Assembly (NCBI RefSeq): GCF_964194025.1
Contig: NC_134479.1
Coordinates: 23,126,001 to 23,190,000, forward strand
Direction: 5' to 3'
DNA: 64,000 nucleotides
From: Convolutriloba macropyga
Taxonomy: Eukaryota
Shown one piece after another: positions 1 through 55,600 of this stretch. The notes below the pieces were generated by a model that saw only the letters and a program-made list of their open reading frames with translations, searched no databases and was not told the DNA's origin. The translations under genes were made by a program, and so were the position numbers. How positions within the stretch are numbered: position 1 is the stretch's first letter; the number at the start of each line of letters is the position of its first letter.

Positions 1-38
1 TGAAAAAAAAATTATTTCAACAAATCATGTTAGTAGTG

Positions 39-472
39 TTAGAGCATCATATGAAGCGCATAACGTATCACATAAACATCACTCATCTTTACAATTTTTT
101 TCACCAAAAAGATAGTGAGCAATATAAACACAAAATAAGCCTTACAATACAGGGTTTGGTTTTGAATAGGCTGGTGTCTTAGCAATTCATACACAGTTTG
201 AATTTTATCAGCAGAGGAAGCAAGCCTTTTATGTAAATATTTGTATGAAGCTAAGTTTTGTCCAAGTGGATCAGGAAAAATATACTTTCCCTTTCCCCGA
301 CAAAAAAAAGTGTCCAATGTGTTCCAATTGACTGAGAGGTTGAAACATTCACTACGATTAAACTGTTGTGAGATAGATTAACAGGGAAGTTGTCAGCTGC
401 GAACACACCTCGATACTTGTATTTCAAAAGTTTACATGCCTGAACAAGGTTGTTTGTTTCATCTTCATCCAT
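39..472 (-). pseudogene. Polinton adenain-like cysteine protease (frameshifted)
   Basis: ORFs 251-472 and 39-317 join to give YRGVFAADNFP..IVVNVSTSQSIGTHW..YIFPDPLG..PIQ. Catalytic His (GTHW) and Asp (DPLG) are present; the Q/C region is frameshifted. Confidence 0.88.
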
Positions 473-1690
473 CAGTTTGTAAAAATATGATTTTTTGAAA
501 CTCTTCGTGCAGAATCACTAAAGATAGTGCTTGCTTTATCCCCAATAAAAAAAATTTCTATATTGTTGGGTAATGCCGCTGAAAATTTAAGCTCAATTGA
601 AATAGAACAATTTGTAAGTTCAAGGTGAATAAAATCATGTGAAGCCTGCTTAGTGCAGGTGAGATCAAACACCATAATAGAATATTTGGGGTATTCAGAC
701 AAACTAATTCCATGCCCATTATCGATATAGGCTAAATCTGACATTGTTTTGAAGTACAAGCGTTTTACATCAACTTTATTTATGGGGCTGTCAGCAACCG
801 GGAGTCCATTTCAATAAAAAGAAATCTGCTCCAGATTAAATTTACGAAATTGAAAAGGATTGAGTTGTTTGCTTCCTAAGAAAGATTCGTTTGTGTTAAG
901 ACAAATGGCAAGACGTCGAATAGGCTCCCTGCTAAAAACATCTTCTTGTTTCCAACTTTGCAAGCCAGTGGAAGCCAAAAATGTTTTAGTTATAATTTCC
1001 AAGTAAAGGTAGGACGCTGGACTTGATAGTAAAGTTTTTTCAATTGCAGAGACCACGTCATCGTTCAGCGTCATTTTTCTAACATACAAATTAGCTTCAA
1101 TAAATTTAACCTTTTATGATTTTCCAGCATCGTCAGAAATTATAACAAAATTATCTATTGATCGTCGAAACGAAATTCGCAGACTGAAAAGATGACGATC
1201 ACATGTAAATAAAATCTACTGCCACTTTTCCATGAAAAGTACATTCGGTAGATTGTCTAACCAAAACTTTTCGTCTGTTAACTTCAGCTGTTGCTATTGA
1301 TTCAGGATTATCCTCGTACTAGTAATCTTGGCAAGCCAGCCAAGTATTTTTTGCATCCTTGTTGTCAGAAAATTCGGTTACAATGAAACTTTTGTAAGCA
1401 TAATTTCGATTCGCATATAAAATTTCTAATCAGTTGGCTGATACTGTAAAGCCAGAAAAGAGTGAATGTAAAACATTATTACAAAAGTAAGGAGCGTCTG
1501 TTTTAATTAAGTCTGCTGCATATCCAGCATCACATTTTAAATCAGCTTCAGATGCCTCAACAATCTTGCATTTGATTTCAAGGAAAAATTTTTGCTGATC
1601 AATAAAATTATTTCTGTCTCCAAGCATGGTTCTGTTAGGACTGTAAACTACTCCTACTTTTTGACAGAAGCTCCCATCAAAAGTTCCCTT
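472..1690 (-). pseudogene. Polinton major capsid protein (double jelly-roll, PY/hexon), disrupted
   Basis: Fragments GDRNNFIDQQKFFLEIKCKIV..NNVLHSLFS, YAYKSFIVTEFS, VDLFTCDRHL, EANLYVRKMTL, PIRRLAICLNTN..NPFQFRKFNL, NGHGISLSEYPK..VFDLT..ISIELKFSAALP match the Polinton MCP pattern; multiple stops. Confidence 0.88.
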
Positions 1691-2084
1691 GCCTGTTTGT
1701 GTTTTGAAATGGCTACTTTTCTTTTTTTTGCTAAGTTTTCTCGCTTTTGAACCTGAGAGTTTAGATCGTCTACGATTCATTCGTCTTTGTCTCATTCGCA
1801 GTGCCAATGAACCTCTTGTTTTCTTTTTGACTGTATTTGATATCGTGTTTTTCAGTGCTTGTTTTGGAGATTTTTTTACTGACAACTTCCATTAACTCTG
1901 GTACGCTCTGTAACAGAAGTTCTTTTCCAACACGTTTTGCTGCTGGTATAATAAATTTTCTGGCAAGAGGTAGAGCGATTTTTCCAATACCACTTGCTAA
2001 AGCTTCAAAGCCGCTACCTCTTTGCCTATAATGCCCCGAAAAATACGGCAATGCAGATGATTGATTGGTGTAGTAAGATTCCAT
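1690..2084 (-). pseudogene. Basic core/DNA-condensing protein precursor (pVII-like)
   Basis: MESYYTNQ..YFSGHYRQRGSGF..IALPLARK..AAKRVGKELL followed by an R/K-rich tract (RMRQRRMNRRRSK..KKKKSS). It sits between penton and MCP as in Polintons; one frameshift near 1880. Confidence 0.72.
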
Positions 2085-2089
2085 TGCTT

Positions 2090-2951
2090 TTACTCGCCCA
2101 ATTTTTTTAACTGTAACGTCAGAATGGCCTTACCGGTCCCTTAAAAGCGGACTAATTGACCTGTTTCGATGCGTATTTCTATAGAAATTGACTGAATCGT
2201 ATTTGAAAGAAGTTTTTTGTAGTCCAAATTCGAAAAAACTTTTCTGTGTGTTGGTTCAAGCTCGCAGACGCTACCGTTTTTGAACCGTTGTTTTGAATCA
2301 GTGACTCGTAGTAAAGATGCTTTTGCATCGCCAACTTATTGATAATCAATAATGTTTGTATAAATAAATATCAAATGTTTCCCGTTGCAAATATCAGCTG
2401 GAAAATCCCACAAAGAAGCCTTGGTATCATCTTTTTTGATCAGTTTGTTTGCAGTTTTTTTCTTTTTTATAACCAATGTCTGTTTTTCGTCCATCACTTG
2501 GAAATTTCATCGCTTGGAAACGTAATTCCTCGTAATTTCCTTAGACAATTTCAAATTTACCGGTACTTTTAATTTCTCTGAATAAAAAATTTGGTAAAAC
2601 AACTGTTCATATAATGATAGCTAACAACTGTGGGACTGTATCAAAAGGTCCTGGCATGAAAGCTAATCGCTCAACGTGGTACGGACGTGATATGACATTG
2701 GCTCCAGAGCTATTTCGTTGGTGATCTTCTAAACCACTTAAACTGTAAGAAGTTAGGACCCCGTTTGTTATGTGTTCTATTTTAGTTGGAAAAATAATCT
2801 CACTGAAATCTACTCTCCAGTCTCCCAACAAATGTATTTCATCATTGAAAAAGTTTCTGAATTAAGCCAATGTGTTTTGATCGAAGATCTCCATCGAAGC
2901 GGAGGACATTCCATGTACCGTAAATTCATCTTCAAAACGCTTAATTTCCAT
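2090..2951 (-). pseudogene. Polinton minor capsid protein (penton/PX), disrupted
   Basis: N-terminus MEIKRFEDEFTVHGMSSASMEIFDQNTLA*FRNFFNDEIHLLGDWRVDFSEIIFP; C-terminus IQSISIEIRIETGQLVRF*GTGKAILTLQLKK. Confidence 0.82.
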
Positions 2952-3937
2952 TTTGCACAGGATATTCTCGTACTACTTGGAGTTCGGCTTGATAGAATTT
3001 ACCCTGAATATTTTCCTTATCGGTATCAATAAGAGAGTACGTTGGAGGGTTCAATGTTGGGAAGGACGAAATTTCAAAAACCTCGTCTGCAAAAGACTGT
3101 TTTTAACCCTTTCCAAACGTCTCCTCTTTTTTCAGTATTCGTACAAGATCACCAACAAAAAATTTGGTTTTTGAGAAAATGTTGTATTCGCAATCAACGT
3201 TCCAAGCCGCGGAACGTTTTTTTTTGTTACTTTGTTTGGAGCAAGTTTGATTGTTCGATTAACTCTAGAATTGATAGTTTTAACAAATGAATCCAGTTGA
3301 TCTAGATATGAATAAGTCCACTTCTCTTCTAAGTATCTGTATGTTATATTCTTGAGGGAAAGTAATTTCTTTCAGCAAAAGTAGACTTTTTCTCACTGAA
3401 CGTACTGTATAAATGAATTCAGCGTTTGTTGTAAAGGTCTTTGAAAGCACCGAGGAACTCCGAGCCATCATCGACCCAAACTTTTTTAGGTTGCTTACGT
3501 TTGATCATCTCTTTGAAAGCCTCTGCAGTTTCTGTAGCATATTTTGATTTTAGTGGTTCAACCCTGAGAAATCTTGAGAGACAGTTAACTGCAACAAGAA
3601 ACTATTTTACACCACGGTTGTACTTTGCAAGTTTATCAACAAATGCTAGATCTACGGACCAGATCTCATTTAGGTCGTTAACAATTACTTTAAATCTTGG
3701 AAATCTGAGGCGACGTAAACGGTATTTGGTGAAAGATGGTCTCTTTTCCAGATACATTTTTACCTTTTTAATTGATAAATTACCCAAATTTTGCAGTCTT
3801 TTTGCGTTTCCAAATGACGCAGGTCCTTTTAAATAGAGGTTGTCAAGTTTCTTCGCATCATTTACAGAAAGCCCAGTCTTTTCTAATCGTGTCTTCGTCT
3901 GTCTTCTTTTTGCTCTCATCGACTTTTGTCTTTGCAC
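2941..3937 (-). pseudogene. Polinton retroviral-like (rve) integrase, disrupted
   Basis: LYLKGPASFG..WSVDLAFVDKLAKYNRGVK*FLVAVNCLSRF..VWVDDGSEFLG..FAERN..INSRVNRTIKLAP..IQGKFYQAELQ. DDE residues are visible; stops and a frameshift are present. Confidence 0.92.
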
Positions 3938-4646
3938 TTTTTCTTTTGTTTCAGATCTTCCTCATGGTTGTTTTTGTTGCTGCTGCTGTTTCTTTCGTTT
4001 TCGAGTCGGTTGCTCTTCCTCTTCTTCGCTGTAAAATTCATCGAGAACTTTTTTTTTGCATAAGTATTGTAAACCAAACGGGCTGCTATATCAAGTTCAC
4101 TCAATATTTTTGAATACTTTTGCAGGTCATTTTTTTGGTAGGTTGTTGTAAATTGTACAAGAAATTTGTCACATTCACTCGTTGAGGTTCATTTTCAATA
4201 TGGAGGACGTTTTTCTCTTCACTAATAGAAATAGTATTGGAATCAAAAAATTTTTTTCAGGATAATTGCAATTTTTTTTTATTTTAATCCATTAATTTTA
4301 GTTCTAGTTTTATTGAGTCAAACGCTGATTCCTTCCGTTTTTTCACTATGGGTTCCGTTTCACTGTCATCACTAACAAATATTTCTGATTTTACGTCATG
4401 TGGATCACTTCTTCCATCACCGGTACTCTTTGTTCTCGTGATCAATCTATCAGTGCTTGTCAGTGCTTGTGTCAGCATCTTTTATTGTTTTCCACTGCAT
4501 TGCTCAAAATTTGGATTAGATCTTTGTAGGAGTGATAACTGATTGGCTTTTTGTTGATATATTGGATTATCAATAATTTCTTCCTTGATTGGATTTTTTG
4601 ATATGAACATTCTCCCGGGGATCAAAACAAATTCTTCTGCTTGCAT
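3916..4646 (-). pseudogene. Polinton PZ-like protein, disrupted
   Basis: Starts MQAEEFVLIP and continues through ORF pieces 4482-4724, 4284-4478 and 3916-4104 (..TNFLYNLQQPTKK..). The assignment rests mainly on position between PW and integrase. Confidence 0.55.
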
Positions 4647-4909
4647 TACTTGACCTTTAAGTAAAGATGGCAAGAGAATCCTATTGCCTTGATAAGTTCT
4701 GATTTTCATGCCAAAATATATCACTTTCTCGTCAGACTTGTTTCCTTTAATAATAACTGCTGAAATGAATCTTGATTTTTAAGCAACTGCTTTTTACTGG
4801 AACATTGCCGTAGATTACATTGAGCAAACACTCACATAGAATGTTTATAAAAACTATTTGGTGCTTCTTTGAGAAACTTTCTGAAATTACTCTCAGACAG
4901 CTTGAGCAT
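4646..4909 (-). pseudogene. Polinton PW-like small protein, disrupted
   Basis: MLKLSESNFRKFLKEAP..(frameshift)CECLLNVIYGNVPVKKQLL..ELIKAIG. The CEC-LN---GNVP motif characterises the small ORF that follows the Polinton ATPase. Confidence 0.7.
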
Positions 4910-5520
4910 TTGCTTTAGCATACATAACTGTTTCCCTCTCATCTGTCAAGTTAGTTATAGCTGCTTTGGAGGAAGGTAGATCAAAAATTGTTGGACCTGG
5001 CTGTACAATATTTGAACAATAACGCAAAGAGTCTGAAGTTTTTGGATCCAAGTCGATGAATAAGTGTCAAAAGGGTTTATTTTGTTGCTAATTCGTAGCT
5101 TTCTTTTAAAAAACTTGTGTTGTTTAACTGTTTGCCAATATAGGTAATCTGCTGTATGTCTCTAGAACAAAATGATGTGGGTTGTGTTCAGATCAATTGT
5201 TCTTGGCCATTTACTCTGTTGGAAAAAGTTATGCTTAACGTAAAAGAAAGTTTCCTCACAAGAATTGTCAAAAACAAGCAGACATTTTTCCGATGTTAAA
5301 TGAATTCAAATCCAGAAAATTTTGTGGAAAAATTATTCAAGTTATGCTATATAGAGCTGAATTCTGGTTGCTCATGTTGATAGAAGTAATAAATGGATTT
5401 AAATTTTGGATAAAATGTTTTTCTCAGTAACATTTGGAAGATGAGCTCAGTTTTACCACAGCATGACGGCCCACAAACAGCCATGAATAGTCTATCGCTT
5501 GTTGAAATTATCTTTTTCAT
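4893..5520 (-). pseudogene. A32/FtsK-like genome packaging ATPase, disrupted
   Basis: MKKIISTSDRLFMAVCGPSCCGKTELIF (Walker A), CLLVFDNSCEE (Walker B-like), YVKHNFFQQSK..TIDLNTTHIILF, KPF*HLFIDLDPKTSDSLRYCSNI. Confidence 0.9.
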
Positions 5521-5807
5521 AGCTTCGGATTAGGAAGCGCGTAGCCAACTGTGCATGCAAGCAGTGAAAACCAAATTGTTGACTCTTCACAATCAAGATG
5601 AGAAAAACAGTTTCATCAAAGTTTGATCAAAGACACAACAATAAGAAACAGTATTATTATGAGTTGAGTTAAACACACTACTTCTGATCATTGTAGTCTA
5701 GTGTTACATAATTTCCAGGACCGTCTCTCTTGATTTTCTCCATTGAAAGCTAAGTCATTCAAACCCACTCCATCAGCGAAATGTATCTCATTTTCTTTAT
5801 TACTCAT
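5517..5807 (-). pseudogene. Small two-helix membrane protein of Polinton type, frameshifted
   Basis: MSNKENE..RRSWKLCN..LTQLIIILFLIVVSLIKL..STIWFSLLACTVGYALPNPKL*. The stop overlaps the ATPase start (ATGA). Confidence 0.6.
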
Positions 5808-5809
5808 TT

Positions 5810-6293
5810 GAAAAGAAGTTTTCATGAAAAGTGAATTTATTATTTTTCAAATTTAATGTTAGCTCATTAATTTGTTAGTCACTCTCTCAATCATAAAATA
5901 GTCATAAGTATTATATAAAGAGTCTTTTTCGTCCTTTTTGTATGTCACCTTGTAGTTCGCCTGCATACCAACACCAATCGCATTGTAGACAATTGAGTCC
6001 ACATTGCCTTCGCTGACTACTTCTTTGATTTCATCAGGGAGACTTTCGTCGTCCAGCGAGGCTAACTCGAACGGGGGTTGGCGACTTGTGCTTAGGTAAA
6101 GGGGTTAGTTTCAGTTTTTTCTTTTTCTCTTGTAAAGACATGGCACATTTGAAAGTCTTCAAGCAATGAAAGATTTTTTTTTCAGCGTCTCAATCTCAGC
6201 TAGATTGCAAAGAATTTGTTGTTTCCTCAGAAAAAATTGCGCCCCTGATTCTATTTTTTCCTCTCTGGCCAGAGAGAGTTATTTGATTATCAT
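5810..6293 (-). pseudogene. Unidentified decayed Polinton ORF
   Basis: Coding-like pieces (NVDSIVYNAIGVGMQANYKVTYKKDEKDSLYNTYDYFMIERV) between flanking element genes; no family recognised. Confidence 0.3.
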
Positions 6294-6892
6294 TCGTTAT
6301 GCAACTGCCTACTGTCAAACTTGGAGATAAATTCACTTGAAGAACTGAAGGAGCTACCTTCTCCACTGTTAGTCCCTACTTCATTGGCGGACAATGTTAG
6401 TCAATAGAAATATAACTGTGCTTTTCTTTTAGCGCAATGTCTTTTCTTTTGTTTCTCAGGAACTAAAGAGAGTGTAGAGCACAAGTAAAATGTTCAATTG
6501 TGGTAACAATTTCCTCAACTTTAGGGCATAAAAGGTTATCCAAATCTATCACTTCTTTCTGTAAAAGTGTTTGCAGTGATTCTGTTTTCTCTTTCTTTCC
6601 CCTTAGCATAAAACTTTCCTGAAGGAAATCGAAGTTTCATTGCAATAAAACTTTGAGATAGAAACCAGTAGGGATAATTGTCACTATTCCACGACAAATC
6701 GGTCAAAAACTTGCTTACCCACTGATTAGATTTTCTCGCACTAGCGGATAGTGAATTGTATGAAACTGGTGGTTGGAATAAGATTGCTTCTGAATAGTTG
6801 CTTGAGCAAATTGATAACTCTTAAATTATAAAACCGGATTTTTTATGGCGAAAACCATCAAAATCTAAAACGACAAATTCAGGAGTTAACAT
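6290..6892 (-). pseudogene. DEDD/DnaQ-like nuclease-fold protein of Polintons, disrupted
   Basis: MLTPEFVVLDFDGFRHKKSGFII*ELSI..LFQPP..WVSKFLTDLSWNSDNYPY..FYAKGKE..VIDLDNLLCPKV..CALH..HCAKRK: an N-terminal hhhDxDGF motif and a C-terminal C/H cluster. Confidence 0.6.
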
Positions 6893-7299
6893 TCCAGCAA
6901 ATTAAACAAGTTCCGTTGAAACGTTTTTACGAACAGACAAAACAGTAGTCCTGTCATGTGACCAATATAAGCGTTTGTGATTGGACAAGGTAAAACGTAT
7001 GAATATCCAGGGCCTTTCTGACTCTGCTCTGCAATAAACCCCGAAGCGTCATGAAGTATTGCATGTAATCGAAGGAATTTATATGATATAAGTTATGTGT
7101 CTAACGAGGAGTTTTCTATACCAATAAGGCCACCATATGTTCTCAACTTGAGAACTATTTCCAAGTTAATGTCTGGGTCTAGAAAAAGACATGCTGCCAA
7201 AAAGTATACAAACGGTTCACTATAATCCGGATAGTCAACTTTTATGTGCTCATAAATTTCATGAATGTTTATCATATCTATGGTCGCAATTGTTGTCAT
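6886..7299 (-). pseudogene. Putative phospholipase A2-like (HD) protein with one internal stop
   Basis: Reading through the TAA at 7093-7095 gives ..RTYGGLIGIENSSLDT*LISYKFLRLHAILHDASGFIAEQSQKGPGYSYVLPCP..GHMTGLLFCLF. Its stop overlaps the next ATG. Confidence 0.5.
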
Positions 7300-7607
7300 G
7301 CTGATTCTCAAACAGAGGAATAAGTAAACGAACATTTTCAAAATTTTTTTGAAATTTTTGTGTTTTGCCCCCATACTGCATAGGTGAATAAAGAGAAATC
7401 ATCAAAAAATCACTTTTGAGTGCTCTTTCATAGCGCAAAATCCATTTTAGACCATTTTAGTACTTTGAAAAACTTTTGAAAATTTTAGGCTTCTGGTGTA
7501 TTATATTGGATTTTTTATGTTTTCACCAAAAACATTTAGTAAGAGGCCAAAACTTAGGTAACACGTATTTCTATGTTTGCAACAGCGGAAATCTGTCATT
7601 TGCGTTT

Positions 7608-7832
7608 TGGGGCGGGGATTCGGACTCCACCCCCTACAAGACTTTTTACCACCGAAAAACTGATTTTCTCTTTGTGAAATAAAGTTTTTTGGATAAGTTT
7701 CGCCAGACTGCTCAACCCAAGAACTTCTCACAGGCTGGCTAAACTTAGACAAAAAACTTTATTTCACAAAAAAAATCAGTTTTTCGGTGGTAAAAAGTCT
7801 TGTAGGGGGGATCCGAACACCCCCCCCCCCCC
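7608..7832. repeat. Long imperfect subterminal palindrome of the Polinton end
   Basis: CCCCTACAAGACTTTTTACCACCGAAAAACTGATTTT..TGTGAAATAAAGTTTTTTG pairs with CAAAAAACTTTTATTTCACA..AATCAGTTTTTCGGTGGTAAAAAGTCTTGTAGGGG around a ~20-nt loop. Confidence 0.9.
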
Positions 7833-7890
7833 ACAAGCATATGCCAGATTCTCTTACTACTTACGCTATACAATTATTGCCGTAAAAGTA

Positions 7891-35396: not shown

Positions 35397-38184
35397 TGTG
35401 AACATTTTTCCATAACCTCACTTTTTCAGTGTAAATTTGATGTCATGGGAAATTTGTTAACCATGTAGAAGTTTTGTCGAATATTCTGTATCAATAACAG
35501 GTTGATTCGCAATCCAATCGCAAAGAATCTGATGCAATACTGTTAAGTCGTAGTATCGTTTTGCTGGTGGTTGAGGTAGTTCGAATATGAATTAAAGTTT
35601 GACTTCATGAATGACGATTGCGTACTAATAATAATTGCTAAATATAAATGTTGAAGAAATTGAACAAATCCGTATGACTTCAATAGCATTAAATTTCACA
35701 TGTCACGCTATTCTAGCTTTAAGGCTTGAAATGGCCTCGAAGCGCTATTCAATTTGGTAATTGAGTTAGTAAGCTCAGCCGCCACATCGCCGGCCATGCT
35801 TTCCATCGAGAAAACATTTTTCAAGTTAGTACTGGGGCGAGCTTCACTACTGGTCTCTTATACACTCAGTCATTCGTTCGAACTATCGCTGATCGAATCA
35901 CACCGTCAGACCCATCGATGGTCTCCGTAACTCGACCTAGGTTGTAAAATCCACGCTTGTCACTATCTTCGATCAACCAAACGAGATCGCCTTCTTTGAG
36001 GGTTTCGTTCTCCGTAGATCGCCATTTTTGGCGAGTATTCAGAGTTGGCAGATATTCTTTACGAAGTTTGTCCCATATGAGATTTGCATAGGCTTGAGTT
36101 TGTCGAAAGAGCTTTCGATGATCAACAAATTCTTCCGCGCATGGTAGGTAGGGGAAGCAAACGTTCTTGTTGCCAAGCAAGAAGTGATTGGGGGTCAATG
36201 CTTCTAAGTCATTAGCATCTGAACTGACTGGAGTCAAAGGTCTTGCGTTTAAAGTCTGCTCAACAATACACATTCTTGTTGAAAGAACGTACTCGGTGAC
36301 TGTTCTGTTCCCCAATACTGCATACATTGCTTTCTTACAACTTCTCACCAACCGCTCCCATACTCCCTTAAAGTGAGGTGCTGCGGGTGGGTTAAACTTC
36401 CATCTGATTCCTCGTTGGATTAGATGTTCTTCGATCCCTTCTTTGTTCCTTGCGGCAACGCACTCTGCCAACTCTCTTTCAGCTCCAAAAAAATTTTGTC
36501 CCGTGGTCGCTGATGATCGTATTCGGTTCGCCTCTTCGAGCAATAAATCTCATTATTGCATTGAGACAACTGTCAGTGTGACCAACTTAGGTATCACTTC
36601 TATGTGCACCGCTCTCATAGTTAGACAAGTAAACAGACAACACCATCGATTTCGTTTCTGTGCCCAATCTTCACAAGGAAAGGGCCAAAGTAGTCAATTC
36701 CAACATTTGTAAAGGCTGTTGAAGCATCTAACCGCTCTTCGGGTAGATCTGCCATGACTGGTGCTATCGTTTGTGCTCTGCCTTTTCTGCAGGAAACGCA
36801 CTTGTTCTTCATTGATCTTAAGTTGTTCCGTATGCCTAGGATCCAAATCTTCTGCTGAACAATGTTTCTTACATGCTCAGTGCCCTCGTGTTGATTGTCC
36901 TTGTGCTCGTTTCGCAAGAATAATTCAACCGCATGATGTTTCCAATGTAGCAAAATTGGATGCTTTGCATTGAAGTCCAGTTGACTTTTGCCTATTCTGC
37001 CTTTGGCTCGAATAAATCTTTCTTCATCTATAAAGGGTGAGAATTGTAGAACTTTGCTGCCTTTTGGAATTTCGTTTTCAGCTTTGAGAGATTTCATCTC
37101 TTCACCAAACTGTTCTTGTTGTAGTAGCTTGAAGATTGATGCTTTTGCTTTTTCTCTTTCTTTAATGCTGACTACGAGTGTTGCTGGTTTGCGTTGATTC
37201 AATGCTCGCTGTAAGTATACCACTGTATTTACTAGTCTGTTAAAATTACTGAATCTTTCCCACTGAATAACAGCTTTCTTCTCTTCAGCCTGTATTATGA
37301 AGACCGATGAGGGCATATTCTCTTCTTCTGATGCAAAGATCAGGTTCACTTGCTCTGGCCCTTCACTTTCTGGTCGCTTCCACCAGGCCGGCCCAGTGAG
37401 CCACTCACTTCTCTTGAGTCCTTCAATGTTGATTGCTCTGGTGCCAATGTCCGCTGGGTTGTTGATACCGCTCACATGTTTCCACTGTGAAACATTCGTT
37501 GTATCTAGTATCTCAGCCACTCGATTGGCCACAAACACTTGTTGTTTACGATTGGAACTGAGCATCCACTGCAATACCGTAGTTGAGTCTGACCAAAAAC
37601 TGCAACTATTTATCTTCATTTCATGTTCCTTGACTATCTGTTCTTTCAACCTCACTGCCATGACTGCCGCTTGCAATTCCAATCGCGGTATTACGTCACT
37701 TTTCCAATACGTCACTTTTTCAGTGTAAATTTGATGTCATGGGAAATTTGTTAACCACGTAGAAGTTTTGTCGAATATTCTGTATCAATAACAGTTTGAT
37801 TCGCAATCCAATCGCAAAGAATCTGATGCAATACTGTTAAGTCGTAGTATCGTTTTGCTGGTGGTTGAGGTAGTTCGAATTTGAATTATAGTTTGACTTC
37901 ATGAATGACGATTGCGTACTAATAATAGTTGCTAAATATAAATGTTGAAGAAATTGAACAAATCCGTATGACTTCAATAGAATGTAGCATTAAATTTCAC
38001 TTGTCACGCTATTCTAGCTTTAAGGCTTGAAATGGCCTCGAAGCGTTTTCAATTTGGTAATTGAGTTAGTAAGCTCAGCCGCCACATCGCCGGCCATGCT
38101 TTCCATCGAGAAAACATTTTTCAAGTTAGTACTGGGGCGAGCTTCACTAGTAAGTTAGTAGAGTTAGTAAGCTCAGCCGCCACA
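35397..38184 (-). mobile_element. Rearranged, 5'-truncated BEL/Pao element (LTR stub + 3' end + LTR + RNaseH-integrase + LTR)
   Basis: TGTGGCGG..GTTCACA LTR at 35397-35786, near-identical copy at ~37700-38086, and an LTR-start stub at 38150-38184. Confidence 0.85.
35866..37715 (-). pseudogene. BEL/Pao pol 3' half (RNase H/A17 + integrase), few frameshifts
   Basis: IPRLELQAAVMAVRL, WSDSTTVLQW, FVANRVAEI, NPADIGTR, H..H..CVSC zinc motif, VGIDYFGP, WKFNPPAAPHFKGVWERLV, LTPNHFL, GRVTETIDGSDGVIRSA. Confidence 0.93.
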
Positions 38185-52609: not shown

Positions 52610-55600
52610 AAGAAAGCTTTCAGAGTTGCTATACATAGATATAGTCTACACAAAAAATCTAGACGCAATCCTAGCTTCTTTTGGTTTCAAAAATATTAAG
52701 GATAACCCGCACCTGAATGCGCACACCTTATTTATTCTTTTGAAAAAAGTCATCCCAACTAAATCATCCTCGGCAGGAATCAAAGTTAGTGTACGTCAAT
52801 TAAAAATTATAATAATTGTATTTCTTTTTTGACATAATATATAAAAGGTTTATTATGATGATTTTCCTTCTCTTGGACAACATTCAACTTCACAATTGCG
52901 TTCCCATAACCTTCAACTTAACATACCACCAAATTGCTTCAACTAAACAATCCTACCAAAAAAATTATCATTTAAACTCTTTATTATAAACACAAGCACA
53001 AGAAACCGAGGTAAACGCTTACTCGGTCATTACTGCTGCCAAATCTGCAGATAGACATCACCCTACTGGACACTCCTCCAAGCTTTACCCCACAATCAGT
53101 AATACTTAACCCCATCTATCACAGTCAAGCAAAAGTATAACAAGCTCAAACACAACCGCACCAAGTGAAGACGCAAAATTATTCAGGGTGTTTTGCAAAC
53201 GAACTCAGGATGTTTTGCAAACACAGCTTTTCAACAAACACCAACAATATCTGCTCCGCCAATACCTCAACCAGAACTATTTAACAACTCAACAAAATCG
53301 ATAAACTTTAATCGATAAACACAAGCAAAACGCAAGTCTCAGAACTTCCACGACCAATACTCACTGTGTCAAAAATAAACGAAATTTCTAAAGATTATAA
53401 TTCCTTCTCAAAAAGCTTAAATCCGGAGCCACTAAGCTCTTGGTATTCTTCACCAACTCCCTCATTAATTGCAAACAACTTTTTCAACGCACTGCAAGGG
53501 CCGGTAACTAATATCGAAAGACTGCTTTCACAAGCTGAGCAGAACCACTCAATTTAACGGAACCACTAATTTTCAAGTTTTTTTCGGTACACCGCCATCA
53601 AATAACACTAAATTCAAATTCTACGATTCCCATTCTGGACCAACACTCTCACCACTGTATCAGAAAACAACCAGAGACCACGCGTACTTACTCCAATCTA
53701 CCTTTATAATTCGATCTGAATTTGTTTGTACCCTCTCTAGATCTGTTTGGAGATAATAATAACGGAGAATAATTACGTAATACGGCTATACCAAAAAAAA
53801 CAAAATTGTATGATATAACATCTGTATAAAAAAGAGCAAAAGACCTAATTGAACATCAAATATCACGTTTTAAAAAGGCTGAATAAGTTGTTGGACAAAA
53901 CAATCTGATTTTTTAACCACAAGCCGCTGCTCCGCACGGTTTGGGTTCAACACTAATTCCTCGTCATCAATCCGATCATTTTGTAGAAAAATCAGCAGGC
54001 TAAAGTTTCTGTTAAAATCTTCGTATCCGTACACACTATGACTGCTCTCCGCGACATATTACAAATATGCAGTACTATAAGCTCAATAAGATTGGTGAAC
54101 GCAAGATCAAACCAACAGATGTACTCTACACAAAAATTCTAGACGCTATACCAGCTTCTTATGATATTAAAATATGACAAGTATCTTCCAAACCCGAGTA
54201 ATCACACATTATTTTTCCTGTTGAAAGAAACGACTACACAATTGAAGAACTGTTAACATTTTTCCCTGCTGACTTTTCAGGTCTAATCTGCCAGCATAAT
54301 TTCCTCCCACCTGAATCGTCCTTGGCAGCAGTCAGAGTTATTGTACCTCAATTAAAAGTTTTAATATATATAATTCCTTGATATACACAATATAAAAAGT
54401 TTTACTGCGATAATTGTCCTTCTCTTGGACAACGCTTAACTTCACAAATGCGTCCCCTAACTTTCAACCGAACACAAACACCAGTGCTCCCCCTTTTACC
54501 GAACCACCAAGTTGCTCCTACAGGGACGCTACAAAACAACTCACCCAAAAGCCCAAAAGTCATCTTTAAACTATTTAACAAAAAAAACACCAGCAGAAGA
54601 AACCGAGCAACGCGCTTACTCGGTCATTAAAACTTCTAAATCTGCAGATTGACCTGATCTTACTGGAGATTCCTCCTAGCTTTACACCACCAAAAGTAAA
54701 CTGTACCCATTCATCAGAGTCAAGCGCAAGTACACAGAGCGCGAGCGAAACAACACCAAGTGAACACACAAAAATATTGACATTTTCAGGTTATTTGCAG
54801 ACACAGCTTTGCAACAAACACCACTAAAACCTGCTCCACGGCTAGTACCACAACCACAATTATTAAAATACTCTGACACACCAAATTTCTCAACAAAGCC
54901 ATTGAACTTTGCGAACACATGAAAAACACAAAACTCAGAACTTTCACAACCAAGGCACACGGTATCAGAAATAAACAAAATTTAATAAAGATATTGATTT
55001 TGTTGCAGAAAGTTCAAATGCAGAGCCAATAAGCGATCAAATTTCATAACCAACTCACCCATAATTTGCAGGCATTCCTTTTAACCAATCAACAAGACCG
55101 GTAATTAATAGCAAAAGACTGCTTTCACAAGCTCAGCGGAACCACTCAATTTCACGGAACCACTCATTTTTAAATTTTCACGGTAGACTGGCGATAAATA
55201 AATCATAATTCTTTGGCTCCCGATGCGGACCAACACTCTCACCGCTTTATCGGAAAAAACAGACACCACAAATACTTACTCCACCCTTCCTTTAAAACTT
55301 GATCCGAATTTGGTTTTACCCCCTCTAGTTTTTTGGAGAGCAAAAAAACGGAGAACAATTACGTAACAGGAGAACACAAAGAATAACAAAGTTGTATAAA
55401 AAGAACACCAGTACAAAAACAAAGAGCCCAGCACATAATTAACCAACTAAATATATTGTTTTCAGTTGAAATTGTTGTTGGACAATGCAAAATGACCACA
55501 TTCAGCTGCTCCACACGTTTTAAGGCTCAAAAATAATCCCACATCTCTTATTTTTTAGTAAGAACACTATAAATTAGATCAATACACAAAAAACTCAGCA

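Follow-up and report, generated by a model that had tools for sequence, protein, structure and literature searches.

A degraded Maverick insertion in Convolutriloba macropyga and the mosaic family to which it belongs

The locus and its genes

The window analysed here is a stretch of 64,000 nucleotides from Convolutriloba macropyga (G000:C12:23126001-23190000 of a surveyed genome of 1.18 Gb). Its positions 1-7861 form one arm of an insertion that is 18,380 bp long. Structure, capsid fold and protein profiles confirm the insertion as a Polinton/Maverick element, and it is very probably a dead member of a Maverick family. On the plus strand the element ends with ...CTTACTACT at 7861, and TACGCT occupies the next six positions, 7862-7867. 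The first-pass annotation had noticed this AGTAGT terminus and had predicted a TACGCT duplication and a polymerase gene, pPolB, upstream of the window. Both were found there. The opposite AGTAGT end lies at G000:C12:23115482 (L002:9482), TACGCT stands directly before it, and broken remnants of pPolB are present in L003. TACGCT flanks the insertion on both sides as a perfect 6-bp duplication; such a target-site duplication and AGTAGT-type inverted-repeat ends are features of Mavericks/Polintons.

The genes were mapped with the natural open frames of related and sister copies as tblastn queries. Thirteen genes occupy 42-7299, all on the minus strand and reading inward from the terminus, in the order in which they are listed after the four terminal features.

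7862..7867, no strand: target-site duplication TACGCT (host DNA); same 6-mer at L002:9476-9481
7771..7861, minus strand: terminal inverted repeat of ~91 bp, starting with AGTAGT on this strand; 87% identity to the other end
7590..7850, no strand: long subterminal fold-back hairpin; arms 7630-7710 and 7731-7809, 87-93% complementary
7335..7486, no strand: single copy of a subterminal unit of ~150 bp; relatives carry tandem repeats, with several matches per related locus
6889..7299, minus strand: orf137, "PLA2-like" (label unconfirmed), broken; 91% to the sister frame
6293..6892, minus strand: orf197, DEDD/MAEL-like (label unconfirmed), broken; tblastn with sister frames
6037..6366, minus strand: orf113, no assigned function, broken; tblastn with sister frames
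5862..6120, minus strand: orf86, no assigned function, frameshifted; tblastn with sister frames
5520..5825, minus strand: small membrane protein with two predicted helices, immediately before the ATPase, broken; tblastn with sister frames
4896..5520, minus strand: packaging ATPase, broken; tblastn, Pox_A32 in related copies
4649..4942, minus strand: orf99, at the position of vertebrate Maverick pm, broken; tblastn, kept in metagenome contigs
3867..4646, minus strand: orf256, at the position of pz, broken; tblastn, seen in metagenome contigs
2947..4056, minus strand: rve integrase, broken; tblastn, PF00665 in a sister copy
2093..2951, minus strand: putative penton (minor capsid protein), broken; tblastn, position and motif
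1718..2084, minus strand: basic core-like protein with an amphipathic N-terminal half, at the pw position, frameshifted; tblastn
475..1684, minus strand: major capsid protein (MCP), predicted double jelly-roll, broken; tblastn, structure model of a sister copy
42..472, minus strand: adenovirus-type maturation protease, broken; tblastn, Peptidase_C5 in a sister copy

Each of the 13 genes is interrupted by a stop in frame or by an indel that shifts the frame, and the window copy is therefore dead. The totals are ~31 stops and ~42 such indels, counted from alignments in which overlapping frames enter twice. The polymerase gene upstream is likewise broken, and the open core reading frames by which an intact Maverick is recognised are lacking. 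The first-pass annotation, in which about half of the genes became visible only through stops, thus understated the damage, and the full virion module that it described holds for the family but not for the window copy. Its single-strand gene train is correct for the window; it does not extend to the whole element, in which five further genes follow upstream, two of them on the opposite strand just beyond the window, together with orf253, pPolB and orf103. In the MCP, rev110 and the polymerase core, the four sisters with the same polymerase type resemble one another at 95-99%, whereas the identity between them and the window copy is 91-94%, which indicates that it has decayed longer than most of its sisters. 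A domesticated or defensive host locus is an extremely improbable explanation: no frame has been preserved among the 13 genes, the flanks of the element consist of other repeats, and no point was found to support it.

The terminal repeat of the four sisters measures 41-99 bp, so that a short repeat is a trait of the subfamily; a deletion peculiar to the window copy was rejected for the same reason. Next to it, the region 7560-7861 folds as DNA at -94.5 kcal/mol (z = -16), a value equalled by none of 100 shuffles. The subterminal unit forms arrays with a period of 147-155 in L004-L009, L011 and L012.

Identity of the genes

A relevant match to Pfam, and a weak one, was obtained for only 2 of 22 window fragments. 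The better preserved relatives were more informative. The rve profile (PF00665) scored above its cut-off in a sister copy (E 7e-9) and gave E 1e-8 in a second related copy and E 0.008 in a window fragment. Peptidase_C5 was found above cut-off in a sister copy (E 4e-6), and Pox_A32 above cut-off in one related copy (E 5.5e-5) and below it in another (E 2e-4). DNA_pol_B_2 (PF03175) exceeded the cut-off in three of eight polymerase-core pieces of related copies, with weak scores (E 2e-9 to 7e-8). The MCP of a sister copy, modelled from 69 sequences, reached 86 in the predicted local distance difference test (pLDDT), and a fold search with this model retrieved the MCP of the Sputnik virophage (E 4e-15) as well as the capsid proteins of PBCV-1, an iridovirus and mavirus. 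The MCP of the family is therefore predicted to be a double jelly-roll protein; a sequence search of PDB with the MCP alignment gave no significant match. Together with the termini and the duplication, this fold and the four profiles bear out the Polinton/Maverick gene set that the first-pass annotation had recognised. The jelly-roll, ATPase and rve matches, whose lack would have spoken against that assignment, were all obtained in sister or related copies. The penton was assigned to 2093..2951 by position, one gene before the MCP, and by a VGDxxAPLL motif in common with published Polinton PX rows. The predicted polymerases in L029:3096-6707, L031 and L027 have C2H2 fingers at the N-terminus and also, below the Pfam cut-off, an insert resembling endonuclease VII; no OTU domain was present among the Pfam and PDB matches for PolB in these sequence-level scans.

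The genes next to the terminus are more difficult to name. A search of 1.84 billion representatives yields 538 relatives of orf137 at E<=0.001, and these keep a GGxxG glycine loop, a HAxxHD helix and GPGY. The glycine loop (GxG) and the HD pair presumably recall the motif of parvoviral PLA2, a label that is unconfirmed. A PLA2 match in Pfam was obtained for 0 of 56 members, PDB sequence searches returned nothing significant, and for orf137 and one distant relative in the ESM Atlas the top score was 0.85, with no usable family. PLA2X of Alpha-adintoviruses combines a parvovirus-like PLA2 with a C-terminal pX-like domain; orf137 departs from this pattern, as its C-terminus is short and hydrophobic and has no basic pX-like tail. 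In orf197 a DxE start and a Cys/His cluster are conserved. Neither Pfam nor PDB gave a relevant match for it, and its single-sequence model was poor (pLDDT 42), which makes a fold search on that model meaningless. Its identity with the adintovirus MAEL gene could not be shown and is an unconfirmed suggestion from the motif pattern. The PLA2-like and DEDD-like labels of the first-pass annotation are thus motif labels that no library confirmed. A PC4/MOSUB-like nature of rev110, considered because of a motif, was rejected for want of Pfam or PDB support, and rev110 and orf253 gave no profile match to each other. orf99 may resemble GasderminX and the core protein cupiennin, likenesses to which no library match corresponds. 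In gene position alone, orf99 and orf256 coincide with pm and pz of vertebrate Mavericks (PMC8097293).

Copies, modules and palindromic derivatives

The family is large. A degenerate 24-base capsid motif has 869 exact sites in the genome (control 0). This figure is a floor: 16 of the 17 coding copies that were checked contain the motif, and this sample is biased to well-preserved copies. In a protein search all 150 scored MCP matches were at >=84%, and capsid frames of 430-460 amino acids are open in many of these 150 copies; the 4,802 loose candidates from the same search are not copy numbers. An animal record was considered and rejected, since corals reach up to 2,802 MCP genes (PMC11131425).

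The modules of the family have different histories. Among 14 copies compared, 12 belong to the wider group of the window copy, and two are more distant in every module. Within the wider group the integrase is 90-98% and the MCP 88-99% identical, whereas the polymerase cores (11 scored, one dropped as too short) fall into three groups at 65-70% identity. Across subfamilies the polymerase is less conserved than the MCP, and orf137, rev110 and orf253 each group the copies differently. The terminus type agrees with the polymerase type in 11 of the 12 copies in which both were read. A recombinant is seen in L010-L011 (G000:C15:38887311-38903695), with terminus and orf253 of the window's type and the polymerase of another.

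Outside the host, 28 metagenome loci with a related MCP were collected, 12 of which exceed 2.5 kb; orf137 is carried by four of these 12. Two of the loci, L059 and L072, with MCP identities of 46% and 40%, have their genes arranged as orf137, orf197, small membrane protein, ATPase, orf99, orf256, integrase, penton, core, MCP and protease. The capsid identity of the marine metagenome contigs that share the gene order is 40-47%, the small membrane-protein gene before the ATPase recurs in six metagenome contigs, and orf99 is conserved as well. As such distant contigs keep the same order, the accessory block is a lineage trait wider than this host. No relatives were found in IMG/VR viral contigs or in phage records. 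Named MCP relatives made up 3 of 120 matches (58-82% identity), all from the acoel C. macropyga, which fits an acoel as the likely host and where RefSeq lists MCP relatives as "uncharacterized protein F54H12.2-like", that is, as uncharacterised host proteins and not as virus.

These relatives bear on the proposal of a distinct, undescribed adintovirus lineage with a new accessory set, which would mix Alpha hallmarks (PLA2-like and MAEL-like genes) with Beta ones (divergent PolB, cupiennin-like core and GasderminX-like orf99). It could draw on the conservation of gene order at such low MCP identity, on the many orf137 relatives without a named family or a basic pX-like tail, and on the weak match of PolB to PF03175, which is how the Beta class is described by Starrett et al. 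(2021, PMC8502044). However, mixing of Alpha and Beta modules has already been published, and the maps in Suppl. Fig. S2 of the same paper already list PLA2X and MAEL, along with MOSUB and Adintoc3. MAEL marks an insect polinton subgroup. Moreover, no cupiennin came up when PDB was searched with the core alignment, and the MCP tree, built by a quick method with no named reference Polintons by which distinctness could be judged, gives no placement. A lineage of this kind is rather unlikely, and the novelty that the first-pass annotation saw in the extra accessory genes is weak, given the same order in metagenome contigs and the published maps. Plausibly, the lineage has not yet been catalogued in this host. 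In the literature outside Repbase no description of acoel Polintons was found; one acoel genome paper gives a Maverick repeat fraction.

Many copies in the genome are derivatives. An exact 22-base terminus occurs 67 times, and 16 terminus-paired elements were examined (14 of the 17 paired sites of the 22-base terminus list, and two further pairs). The 6-bp duplication is exact in 12 of them and differs by one base in two more. Nine of the 16 are palindromes of 14.9-18.1 kb with inverted arms of 6.2-7.2 kb, mostly 92-99% identical, and eight of these nine have an exact duplication. The sole Polinton gene detected in the nine is a relative of orf253 (29-40%) in the central loop; at three loci tested, the interior of the arms matched no coding copy at the DNA level. 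Four more palindromes were recovered with an arm probe. All have AGTAGT ends, three have exact duplications, and three carry a terminus that belongs to a different polymerase type. The 13 gene-poor giant palindromes with Maverick termini lie in L004-L009, L012-L013, L034-L035, L040-L041, L044-L045, L050-L053 and L090-L097. An assembly artefact was rejected as their origin, since the arms differ by 1-8% and the loci have their own duplications.

The central gene is open over 178-238 codons in 7 of the 13 palindromes. Purifying selection on it among the copies was rejected, the ratio of non-synonymous to synonymous differences (pN/pS) being 0.33-2.04 and near 1 (21 pairs, 7 frames). A motif of this gene has at least 137 sites in the genome (control 0), some in tandem arrays; spacings of ~4.9 kb and 3.4-3.8 kb are seen at G000:C1:2804175-2813923 and C11:27408485-27423214. 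In three coding copies (L018-L019, L036-L037, L042-L043) the end with the hairpin and orf137 is duplicated over 2-3.5 kb and the polymerase is gone, which suggests that the palindromes arise by end-copying. No matching description of giant palindromic Maverick derivatives was found in a literature search that excluded Repbase and most subscription journals.

Spread of the family and relation to known elements

The window copy likely belongs to a large family that spread through insertion driven by the integrase and, as predicted, through protein-primed copying that starts at the ends. By analogy with established Polinton biology, the element would be released as linear DNA, pPolB would copy it from the terminal repeats, the ATPase would pack the DNA into capsids of MCP and penton, which the protease would mature, and new copies would be inserted by the integrase. 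Co-resident copies may recombine, so that one capsid-integrase module would travel with at least three polymerase/terminus types, while polymerase-less or gene-poor palindromic derivatives, which have retained their termini, may therefore move in trans.

A more specific account combines these points. It is offered tentatively, as possible rather than probable, and envisages a recombining Maverick population with one capsid-integrase module and several polymerase/terminus types, parasitised by high-copy giant palindromic satellites of ~16 kb made by end-copying, with orf137 as a new family of PLA2-related virion entry enzymes. The satellites would keep either of two helper termini and one accessory gene in the central loop. 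They would derive from the hairpin-bearing end, copied over the polymerase end as in snap-back defective genomes, and the polymerase-less copies with 2-3.5-kb arms would be intermediates.

The termini, the 6-bp duplication, the gene set and order, the breakage, the capsid fold of a sister copy, the hundreds of relatives and the mosaicism of modules are directly established. Several observations nevertheless weigh against the interpretation as a Maverick family spread by insertion and copying. Five of the eight polymerase-core pieces scanned matched no PolB family in Pfam. The penton alignment matched nothing in PDB or Pfam, and the core protein had no library match in Pfam and nothing significant in PDB; like the PLA2-like and DEDD-like genes, for which the two databases were also negative, both are assigned by position or motifs. 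The agreement between polymerase and terminus may be a matter of physical linkage alone, and five terminus-A copies were chosen by their terminus. One sister copy (L024/L025) has non-matching flanks, and in the palindrome of L050-L051 the flanking 6-mers are reverse complements instead of direct repeats, both of which point to rearrangement after insertion. Finally, the evidence for the family is that of genome sequence, and its virions, free DNA forms and transcripts are putative. Among the sequencing runs listed for it, four were of DNA type, from one study, and none was of RNA.

One alternative is that the family spreads solely within cells as a DNA transposon and carries its capsid genes without forming particles. 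The lack of relatives among IMG/VR viral contigs is consistent with it, as are the many polymerase-less and gene-poor derivatives that still insert with duplications. The capsid frames, however, are open in many of the scored copies, the MCP is better conserved than the polymerase, and the entire virion module is kept in distant contigs. A purely intracellular transposon is quite unlikely, and a dead copy of a large, once spreading Maverick is the preferred account.

In most respects the element resembles animal Mavericks/Polintons (Polintoviricetes; Barreat and Katzourakis, 2021, PMC8097293). It shares with them the (AGT)2//(ACT)2 termini, the 6-bp duplication, the int-penton-pw-MCP-protease block with a putative penton and an atp gene followed by two small genes; it falls within their ranges of size (12.7-24.6 kb) and terminal inverted repeat (46-1,447 bp), and their copies are also mostly degraded. 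Unlike in those elements, the ATPase block here continues into the integrase-capsid block, pPolB is found at the far end but on the same strand, one end bears a long hairpin, and at least 869 capsid-motif sites stand against a vertebrate maximum of 287. With the adintoviruses (PMC8502044), now Eupolintoviridae (PMC12451622), the family has PolB, rve, an FtsK-type ATPase, adenain, hexon and a putative penton in common, and the adintovirus maps also include PLA2X, MAEL, MOSUB and Adintoc accessory genes and module swaps between classes. In contrast, orf137 here is without the pX-like tail and is placed before the ATPase block, and PolB starts with C2H2 fingers and holds the endonuclease VII-like insert.

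Large expansions in marine invertebrates are likewise known from the coral polintoviruses and from the acoel Praesagittifera naikaiensis, in which Mavericks account for 4.5% of the assembly (PMC6451197); a gene arrangement of this kind or palindromic derivatives are not described in the available passages of either account. Nematode Polintons (Jeong et al., bioRxiv 10.1101/2023.08.22.554363) likewise exchange pPolB on a shared virion/integrase background within one genome and have nuclease inserts in pPolB, as here. Their two polymerases are ~16% identical in protein, whereas the three types described here are 65-70% identical in DNA and track the terminus type. Polymerase swaps and module transfer as such are therefore already published for nematode Polintons and adintoviruses. 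Other literature drawn on comprises PMC4028283, PMC11161782 and bioRxiv 2025.02.07.637071.

The window copy itself is ordinary, a dead insertion of a well-known kind; the part worth following is its family, with its exchange of modules and its putative palindromic satellites. Hundreds of differently aged copies in one animal genome make module exchange measurable, and the family allows a test of the matching between polymerase type and terminus sequence as well as a search for Maverick particles in an animal. If the palindromes are helper-dependent satellites made by end-copying, they would report directly on Maverick replication.

Two further features lie elsewhere in the window. At 35403-38149, 454-bp direct repeats with 96% identity surround minus-strand frames that resemble a remnant of a BEL/Pao retrotransposon. 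The region 42891-55540 is characterized by a strong negative GC skew, dispersed direct repeats of 0.8-1.3 kb (70-94% identity) and several masked stretches.

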